A stretch of 64,000 nt of DNA, taken from assembly GCF_033153115.1 (NCBI RefSeq), contig NW_026889805.1, positions 19,096,001 through 19,160,000 of the forward strand, given 5' to 3'. Within the stretch, counting starts at the first letter, position 1. Each line of letters begins with the position of its first letter. Origin of the DNA: Saccostrea echinata (lineage: Eukaryota). This document shows positions 4,880-6,116 of this stretch, piece after piece. The position numbers were made by a program, and so were the translations under genes. The notes beneath the pieces were generated by a model that saw only the letters and a program-made list of their open reading frames with translations, ran no database searches and was not told the DNA's origin.

Positions 4880-6116
4880 AAAAAAATCAGTAAATCAGGC
4901 AAGACAAGCCTGGTGTCCATCGGTGAAAACAAACACCCCAAACGAAAAAGTGTTTCCATTAAGAAAGCGGCAAATATAGCCAAAGCTTTTAGTACAAGGA
5001 AAGACACCATGTTTTCAAAGGTAAGCTACTCCTTTTGTAACTTTGTTAGAAAGTTCACAAGACCATCTTTTTTGCCATTTTTAACCTTTTTCCACTCATT
5101 TTGTGATGTTACGTCCATTTCACACTTTTCAATTTTTTCTTTTAATTGTGCCTTTGTTAAAGTTTTAATATTTTCTGCATTGTCTCTTTGTTTTTGGGAA
5201 ATTGTAATTGGCTTGGGTCGAAATCTTTTTAAAAGGGAATTTGTGCGTGAAACTTCCTTTGCATAATTATGGAAATTGGCCTCGCATTGCTCTGCATGTG
5301 AGAAGTCGTATGTCCGGGGCCAATCTGTCGCCACACATTCCCTCCAGCTTCTCTGATAATAAGATGTTACTCTCCTTGATGATTGACCTTTGAATTAAAA
5401 ACCATAAACACAATAATTTTTAATATCGAACATACACAGTGCTAGATAAATATATAAAACATGAAGAAAAAAAAATAAATTTAAAAAAAATACGAAAAAC
5501 ACACCTAAACCTGACAACTTCATCCTTAATTCCATGCACATAAGTGTAGTTCCCATTATCATCATCCGACACTCCAAGGATATTTATCATGTACTCGTGA
5601 ATCTATATAGAAAAATATATATTTTATATTGTAGGCAAAAGAACTAGAAGTCGCGACAGGGGCCAAAGTGAAGATGTCCATAAAGGCTCCGTCGGGCACA
5701 AAGTATATCTATGGAGAGGTACGGGATGTTTACAATACAGGTTATTTGACCAATACCACCCCCCCCTTCAAATTCCAAATGTTTGTTTCTTATTTATTAT
5801 TTGTTTTTATTTGTTTTTGTGGATGTATTTGTGCTGTCCCTCTGTTTTGTTTTCAGTTAATACGTCTGTGTTTTATTTTATTTTTATTCCACGTTCTGTT
5901 TTTGTACCTGTGGTTGTTTATCTTTTGTATACACAGGATGAATCAAGTTTTTCCTTCCCACGGGCGAGGTGGATTGGGTGTGACGGGGAGAATAAAAGGA
6001 AAAACTGTGATTATTGGTGTCGTTGCCATTGCCTTGGCTTTAAAGCCAAAACAAAGGCCGCTCTTTCCAGGTTGCAGTGGTTCTGCCCAGCCCATCATGC
6101 ACTAGCATTGCAGTGA
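4880..6116 (+). CDS. Transposon-borne MADS-box-like + PHD/CW-like zinc finger protein; exons 4880-5020, 5635-5718, 5937-6116; possible first exon 4036-4050
   Basis: GT-AG, phase-0 joins give IKKAANIAKAFSTRKDTMFSK|AKELEVATGAKVKMSIKAPSGTKYIYGE|DESS...WIGCD-x7-CDYWCRCHC...WFCPAH. The first part aligns to the SRF/MADS pattern FSKRKxGxxKKAxELSxLTGxxV...SxxGxxYxF. Confidence 0.7.

Follow-up and report, generated by a model that had tools for sequence, protein, structure and literature searches.

A MADS-box and PHD-finger gene interleaved with the transposase gene of a DNA transposon in Saccostrea echinata

The element and its two genes

The stretch analysed here (the window) comprises 64,000 nucleotides of Saccostrea echinata contig NW_026889805.1 (assembly GCF_033153115.1, positions 19,096,001 to 19,160,000, forward strand). 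Positions 3887-11324 of the window are occupied by a DNA transposon of 7,438 bp with terminal inverted repeats (TIRs), CAG ends, a 5-bp target site duplication (TSD) and many MITEs. It carries a transposase gene and an accessory gene on opposite strands, and its features are as follows, in window coordinates.

3882..3886, unstranded: left TSD, TTTAA, identical to 11325-11329
3887..3973, plus strand: left TIR, starting CAGGTTGGG, 87 nt, 93% identical to the right TIR
4036..4050, plus strand: accessory exon 0, five codons beginning with the start codon (ATG, donor GTAAAT)
4880..5020, plus strand: accessory exon 1, basic arm plus the first half of the MADS helix
5026..5387, minus strand: transposase exon 13 (last), inside the MADS intron, found with the profile of the relatives' last exon (E 4e-8)
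5505..5602, minus strand: transposase exon 12, within the MADS intron; the last exon of relative L060 starts with a homologous part
5635..5718, plus strand: accessory exon 2, the end of the MADS helix plus both beta strands
5937..6116, plus strand: accessory exon 3, linker remnant and damaged PHD finger
6332..9969, minus strand: transposase exons 1-11, open in phase
9969-9735, 9631-9443, 9341-9135, 8936-8830, 8658-8444, 8321-8247, minus strand: transposase exons 1-6
8110-8014, 7482-7248, 7161-7092, 7004-6943, 6858-6332, minus strand: transposase exons 7-11
11238..11324, minus strand: right TIR, 87 nt, pairing with the left TIR at 93%
11325..11329, unstranded: right TSD, TTTAA, matching the left TSD

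The initial annotation held the accessory gene to be carried by a transposon, and the paired TIRs and the TSD listed above bear this out. The window copy and its relatives together show TIRs, a TSD and non-autonomous copies, i.e., the features by which cut-and-paste TIR transposons are recognised. A search of the genome with the window TIR gave 160 candidates, and all 40 that were scored match (40/40). An exact 5-bp TSD flanks 9 of 11 distinct two-ended MITEs (short copies, among 19 loci), and a reading of the TSD as 3-bp TTA or as TTAA was ruled out by these MITEs, which show 5 bp. The CAG start and 5-bp TSD recur in the diverged full-length relatives L058, L059, L065, L069, L070, L075, L076 and L127; L109, checked among the same relatives, has no 5-bp TSD. 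Members of an abundant MITE family, ~960 bp long and also 1.3-1.5 kb, have the TIR of the window element (L080, L083-L096), and their TSDs have a T-rich start and an A-rich end (T-N-N-A-A type).

The element sits within a LINE and splits the LINE frames at both borders: a frame that, going by its translation, we take to be endonuclease-like stops at the left border, and another, presumably reverse-transcriptase-like on the same grounds, starts after the right border. This host LINE (2972-3881 and 11330-13221) is itself frameshifted, and the minus strand holds more LINE-like fragments at 13486-14823. Elsewhere in the window, a large foldback at 57724-61774 has inverted arms of ~1.4 kb (88-95% identity in most segments) and a 156-bp tandem array at its centre (59090-60013). 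Tandem arrays of ~163-bp and 140-148-bp units are also present at 26691-27708 and 44407-45081; we presume these to be satellite- or Helitron-like.

The transposase gene has 13 exons on the minus strand, ~826 codons in all, which are in phase and free of stops in exons 1-12. Judged by conservation and by alignment with DUF6589, its catalytic residues are probably the D of IDNNQ, the D of GCDALP, the H of GLGHYE and the E of DFVLE. Three lesions are evident in the window: the start codon reads ATA, the donor after 6943 is AT, and exon 13 is frameshifted. The conserved Asn after the last Glu is also substituted. A transposase without a C-terminus, as tblastn had left it by missing this part, was considered and then rejected, as a profile search located the C-terminus inside the intron between accessory exons 1 and 2 (5021-5634, the MADS intron). 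This intron contains transposase exons 12 and 13 on the opposite strand, so that accessory exons 2 and 3 lie in turn inside a transposase intron, and exon 13 has its stop codon 3 nt past the donor GT of the MADS intron.

Sorting the relatives by the profile order of their exons separated two arrangements. The last transposase exon lies beyond the PHD exon or MADS exon 2, i.e., the genes are interleaved, in the window, L065, L075-77, L108-L112, L115 and L118, and a metagenome contig whose transposase is only 25% identical (L151) is interleaved like the window. The last transposase exon precedes the PHD exon, giving a plain tail-to-tail pair, in L058-64, L066, L067, L071, L113 and L116. Conserved antisense interleaving of two multi-exon genes is unusual in itself. 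At the level of single bases, the Glu-stop of the transposase falls within a few bases of the antisense MADS donor both in the window (5021-5028) and in L151 (2189-2198), and in the window ~30 nt separate the acceptor of transposase exon 12 from the opposite-strand acceptor of MADS exon 2, the two having one A/T-rich tract in common.

The accessory gene consists of four exons on the plus strand that encode a MADS domain, a linker and a PHD finger; the window product is 139 aa long, and its ATG lies 150 nt from the element's left end. A gene of ~140 aa with splices at 5020/5635 and 5718/5937 had been proposed, and both splices hold up. The sites are canonical (donor GTAAGC after 5020 and acceptor TAG before 5635, donor GTACGG after 5718 and acceptor CAG before 5937), both junctions are in phase 0, and the joined frame is open. 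While exons 1-3 and the gene as such stand, that account overlooked exon 0 (4036-4050), the interleaving with the transposase, the broken state of the latter and the intron shared with SRF that is described below. The five-codon mini-exon is also present in relatives L058, L060 and L079 (a second copy of the window family), and it begins the Magallana gigas database protein P0023. The GT donor after exon 1 is found in the window, L058, L059, L060, L061, L071, L113 and L151, and L063 has lost it; the AG acceptor before exon 2 is found in the window and 14 other loci including L151 and is lost in L066 and L067. Splicing is backed indirectly by two database proteins, P0003 and P0024, which are joined products on public contigs of 1,067 and 2,571 nt, and we infer that these joined forms derive from RNA; P0025, which has the same source, runs on through the intron unspliced.

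An intronless relative, L069, has a 998-aa transposase, a 31-nt TIR, a 5-bp TSD, two copies and no MADS-PHD gene. It contains a 201-aa ORF (2013-2618, minus strand) in which a basic helix followed by two strands, a MADS/NRF1-like pattern, can be made out by eye; this ORF has no Pfam or family-profile match. A 119-aa ORF (939-1298, plus strand) matches HIRAN weakly (E 0.004). The region 7407-7548 of L069 and the N-terminus of L072 (7706) share a Cys-rich start that resembles the RAG1 N-terminal domain and that we take to be Chapaev-like; the transposase start of the window subfamily is shorter, zinc-binding and unlike it.

The MADS domain and the PHD finger

Among animals, the canonical MADS genes are SRF and MEF2, and a MADS-box-like domain had been recognised in the spliced window product. 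This identity is upheld by Pfam SRF-TF matches among homologues, by a plant profile applied to the window, and by a predicted fold and dimer. After splicing, the first 80 aa reach 29.2 bits on a profile built from 4 plant MADS domains, a score attained by 0 of 1000 shuffles; the unspliced read-through scores 6.8 bits on the same profile, where the best of 1000 shuffles scores 11.6. On a family profile made without oyster sequences the spliced form scores 40.2 bits, again reached by 0 of 1000 shuffles. Taken singly, the window exons have no SRF-TF, PHD or CW match in a Pfam scan.

A profile search of 1.84 billion representatives returned 288 matches at E<=0.001, 150 of them among the matches listed. 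When 24 homologues, picked because they span the MADS region, were scanned on Pfam, 11 passed the SRF-TF (PF00319) cut-off of 26 bits, 5 fell below it and 8 had no match. Scores include 29.9 for P0002, 29.3 for P0022 and 28.9 for P0023 and range up to 47.8, and both mollusc and echinoderm full-length homologues are among those above the cut-off. A PHD-only query (exon 3) retrieved P0002 and P0003, both with SRF-TF, and 23 of 176 collected proteins match two profiles at once, plant MADS and family PHD. When the genome was scanned blindly with PF00319, 21 matches came out at E<=10; 4 are host SRF/MEF2 exons, and 7 of the other 17 sit within these elements. On the host side, one contig bears an SRF gene and, 50 kb from each other, two MEF2-type MADS exons (L098, L099, L100). 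We also observed a family-like MADS domain without PHD in the sponge Sycon ciliatum (P0162), two tandem MADS copies before the PHD in P0137, and a long N-terminal extension in P0038.

The AlphaFold2 model of P0022 (29 sequences) has a helix at 26-57 and strands at 62-66 and 72-76, with pLDDT of 87-97. The top structural matches of its MADS part are MEF2, SRF, MCM1 and SEP3 chains: several MEF2/SEP3 chains superpose with an rmsd of 0.5-1.4 A over 41-48 columns (Foldseek, all E-values above 0.001), and the top VIA match is MEF2A (Z 6.2, rmsd 3.1 A over 58; VIA Z below 8 throughout). A predicted homodimer of P0022 15-90 scores 0.54 vs 0.00 for the best of 3 controls, with contact agreement of at least 89% and pLDDT of at least 69. 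In microbes the mark for a dimer is attained by 21 of 30 solved pairs and by 0 of 23 single chains, in eukaryotes by 17 of 29 solved pairs and by 0 of 30 single chains; the pass of P0022 may be due to likeness to, or memory of, solved MADS dimers. This family member is thereby predicted to have the MADS fold and to form an antiparallel homodimer, with a sheet common to both chains. The basic helix residues are partly retained, with Arg at P0022 position 42 in 19 of 25 sequences and at position 35 in 18 of 24.

Exon 3 had been described as a PHD/CW-like finger with one probable zinc site, and here only the PHD part stands. The full ligand set C-C-C-C-H-C-C-H is present in 27-28 of 28 aligned family fingers, seven Cys/His ligands and both Trp being invariant and the central His being kept in 27. 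At the final ligand position, His stands in 104 of the 108 ends that were matched (among 141 matches), such that the finger ends Cys-x2-His. Five homologues (P0003, P0023, P0031, P0043 and P0046) pass the PF00628 cut-off, whereas no CW family (PF07496) appears in the Pfam results for 21 + 24 proteins or for exon 3. In intact relatives, a Ser/Thr/Pro linker joins the MADS and PHD parts. The top Foldseek match of the PHD is the AL3 PHD bound to H3K4me2, and near structures include H3K4me readers. The two invariant Trp presumably occupy the positions of the methyl-lysine cage, and the residue after the third Cys, which we take to be the one that binds H3 Arg2 in K4-methyl readers, varies (S in 10, D in 6 and E in 4 of 28). 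The PHD may bind the histone H3 tail.

In the window copy, a ~95-nt deletion at 5963/5964, between short identical triplets, has removed the first CxxC. Three close but broken relatives hold 94-95 more bases at this site; the CxxC codons are intact in two of them, and the first Cys is changed in the third. The central His is replaced by Arg, which leaves five of eight zinc ligands in the window copy. Since the relatives carry all eight ligands, the one-zinc finger is, as judged from the aligned sequences, the outcome of decay rather than a natural form. With a PHD lacking one zinc site and three transposase lesions, the window copy is a decayed and likely dead member of its transposon family.

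Linkage, ancestry and proposed role of the accessory gene

The genomic matches of exon 3 lie next to an opposite-strand transposase match in 18 of 24 cases, and the remaining 6 are isolated fragments at 5 places. Among 39 fetched stretches with a transposase core (several of them near-duplicates, six chosen partly for PHD/MADS matches, and L117 and L126 left out as having no transposase core), 26 have an opposed PHD or MADS exon. No MADS or PHD exon was found in the other 13, including the open intronless L069/70 and L072/73, so the partner is not required by the whole transposase group. All four metagenome loci with the transposase (4/4) show an opposed finger, strong in L148 and L149 and weak in L150 (E 0.21) and L151 (E 0.011), and L151 has in addition both MADS exons and the same junction as the window. 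Among viral contigs scanned for the transposase, no relative was found in 99 pattern matches. The exons joined in the initial annotation are thus conserved in other copies: the pair, the junction and often the interleaving are kept in diverged elements and in L151.

MADS-PHD homologues were found in 8 mollusc species (Crassostrea virginica, Magallana gigas, Saccostrea cucullata, three Mytilus species, Mercenaria and Mizuhopecten) and 6 echinoderm species (Acanthaster, Patiria, two Lytechinus species, Diadema and Amphiura), where they pass for host genes labelled uncharacterised, ALFIN-like or BPTF-like. The named homologues include XP_022288573.1, XP_022108939.1, XP_038058044.1, XP_054760539.1 and XP_021363721.1. 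Oysters supply the closest named protein relatives. These mollusc and echinoderm homologues are probably carried by transposons as well. Uncorrected pN/pS is 0.23-0.40 in five family pairs (33-88 codons, pS 0.6-0.9), well below 1, and 0.53-0.66 between the window and three families.

In the alignment, the accessory MADS intron coincides in position with a phase-0 intron of the host SRF gene, and the host MEF2 intron lies 11 codons earlier. Of 26 family MADS domains, 20 score closer to host SRF than to MEF2. In a tree of 61 columns, which is weak (5 of 29 branches starred) and unrooted, the family rows fall outside the SRF, MEF2 and plant group with a support of 91/86 that is not starred. We infer that the accessory MADS domain shares ancestry with SRF, and the direction of transfer may have been either. 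The gene could then be taken for a passenger, i.e., a piece of host SRF that was captured and joined to a PHD exon, with no role for the element; the position and phase of the intron, the closer scores to SRF and the broken finger of the window copy would all suit such an origin. However, the junction, the ligands and the orientation are kept across transposases down to 25% identity, pN/pS is well below 1, and the divergence from SRF (11 of 37 aligned residues identical in window exons 1-2) is far above that of a recent capture. We therefore consider a passenger very improbable.

The element ends were examined as possible binding sites. By eye, the left TIR holds three imperfect 16-bp dyads with 19-bp spacing (3901-3916, 3920-3935 and 3939-3954). 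The first 300 nt of element ends contain 119 dyads vs 35.8 in shuffles, a count that 0 of 50 shuffles reach and that is inflated by overlapping matches and by the pairing of TIRs. L069 and L127, two elements in which no MADS exon was found, have dyad-rich ends as well, and the dyads may therefore be transposase sites. A/T-cored, family-specific dyads with ~18-20-bp spacing were noted in the first 100 nt, just inside the CAG ends, of the window element, L058, L060, L063, L065, L076 and L109. Direct-repeat periodicity is not significant in the window ends (176 of 500 shuffles) and is absent from L058, L063 and L069 as well; it is clear in L127, L076, L060, L065 and L109 (1-29 of 500 shuffles). 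Enrichment of CArG boxes in the ends was considered and dropped, as there are 2 exact boxes vs 0.58 expected (21 of 200 shuffles reach this) and 8 one-mismatch boxes vs 10.2 expected. L058 has one exact CArG box in each TIR.

Such dyads, together with a PHD that ends in His and has no fixed acidic residue after its third Cys, could point to a structural end-binder, a protein that pairs the TIRs and uses its PHD for protein contacts instead of histone reading. The invariance of both Trp at the presumed cage positions in 28 of 28 fingers and the presence of dyads where no MADS gene was found argue against it, and we regard this role as improbable.

The reading that we favour, by a modest measure, is that in intact relatives the accessory gene encodes a chromatin-engaging partner of the transposase, made of MADS, linker and PHD. 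This function is suggested by the domains and by the linkage of the two genes. The protein would dimerise through its MADS domain, and the dimer would bind DNA, either the dyad-rich ends of the element or A/T-rich targets. The PHD would read the histone H3 tail, and the two domains together would place the transposase complex on chosen chromatin, with labour split as in RAG1-RAG2 and in PIF/Harbinger.

The main competing possibility, which we think rather less likely, is that the protein stays outside the transposase complex and serves its own element by regulating transcription or countering silencing, binding the ends or promoters and altering chromatin there. MADS domains are, by textbook knowledge, transcription-factor domains; both promoters lie just inside the TIRs, beside the dyads, the ATG being close to the left end; and intact-looking transposases without the partner exist (L069, L072). 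The lack of CArG enrichment in the ends speaks against a regulator. The regulatory and targeting roles, both put forward as possibilities in the initial annotation, may also coexist.

With the intact-looking copies L058, L060 and L076, chromatin-guided insertion could be tested directly. The divergent MADS-PHD family in this genome is transposon cargo, and MADS is added to the DNA-binding domains common to transposons and transcription factors. The shared SRF intron also makes the direction of transfer testable. More broadly, we see about even chances that these elements form a so far undescribed lineage, perhaps a superfamily, of Academ-related transposons with CAG ends, a 5-bp TSD and a MADS-PHD partner that is often interleaved antisense, spanning molluscs and echinoderms. 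They would then constitute a third, mobile class of animal MADS genes, in which MADS has passed between host SRF and transposons, as the intron common to both suggests, and in which RAG2-like chromatin reading has been reached independently.

Relation to known systems

The transposase is related, distantly and as far as alignment of its C-terminal catalytic part indicates, to Academ/DUF6589 (PF20231; AcademX, AcademH), with which it shares a large multi-exon gene and the D..D..H..E layout. Around the last Glu, the alignment with DUF6589 has an hhalign probability of 60% (E 8.6e-5, score 40.5), where shuffles score at most 16.1 (19 scored of 20), and no alignment with DUF6589 was obtained for the N-terminal half. 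L072 matches PF20231 at E 1.6e-5 with 24.3 bits, below the cut-off of 27; the PF20231 profile has no match in L069 or the window exons, and 0 of its 105 matches in the genome coincide with a fetched element. Academ/DUF6589 is the third of the ESM Atlas matches listed (0.86). No XPG nuclease or RecQ helicase was seen among the mapped exons or Pfam-scanned ORFs, and the 13 transposase exons and the MADS-PHD gene account for the element's coding matches. AcademHP reportedly carries a PHD together with a helicase. The 5-bp TSD of the window element lies outside the sizes of both AcademX (3-4 bp) and AcademH (9-10 bp) given in PMC10045372. Bivalves are rich in Academ (PMC10294476).

A parallel in layout is offered by RAGL/ProtoRAG elements (RAG1L-RAG2L), which likewise have two convergent genes, a 5-bp TSD and a partner with a C-terminal PHD (PMC7204232). 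According to the same paper, the PHD of sea urchin RAG2L binds K4-methylated H3 and the vertebrate RAG2 PHD ends in Cx2H. The parts are different: the ends here are CAG and theirs CAC/RSS-like, and the partner here has a MADS domain where RAG2L has a kelch propeller. The N-terminus of L069 is weakly like that of RAG1 (PF12560, E 0.055), RAG2_PHD scores of the homologues are weak (E 0.018-0.047), and no RAG1 or Transib chain was found in the PDB at E<=10 for the transposase. The arrangement of a transposase and a PHD partner with a 5-bp TSD thus parallels RAG1-RAG2 with different components.

With the MADS factors SRF, MEF2 and MCM1 (PF00319), the family shares profile, fold, predicted antiparallel dimer and, for SRF, the position and phase of the intron; unlike them, it is much more diverged and variable, fused to a PHD and encoded by transposons. 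A DDE transposon with a separate accessory gene is also seen in PIF/Harbinger and Kolobok. PIF/Harbinger pairs its transposase with a Myb/SANT protein and has a TSD of 3 bp, so that its TSD, termini and partner domain all differ from those of the window element. Kolobok has a TTAA TSD, and its termini and partner domain also differ. Kolobok lineages are defined by their accessory proteins (PMC9587614).

In the literature searched, which does not extend to Repbase Reports or the description of AcademH, no MADS-carrying transposon is described; curated bivalve libraries, e.g., the supplements of PMC10294476, may hold these families. By analogy, the mode of working would be most like that of the two-gene RAG1L-RAG2L and Harbinger systems, with a transposase that is nearest to Academ.
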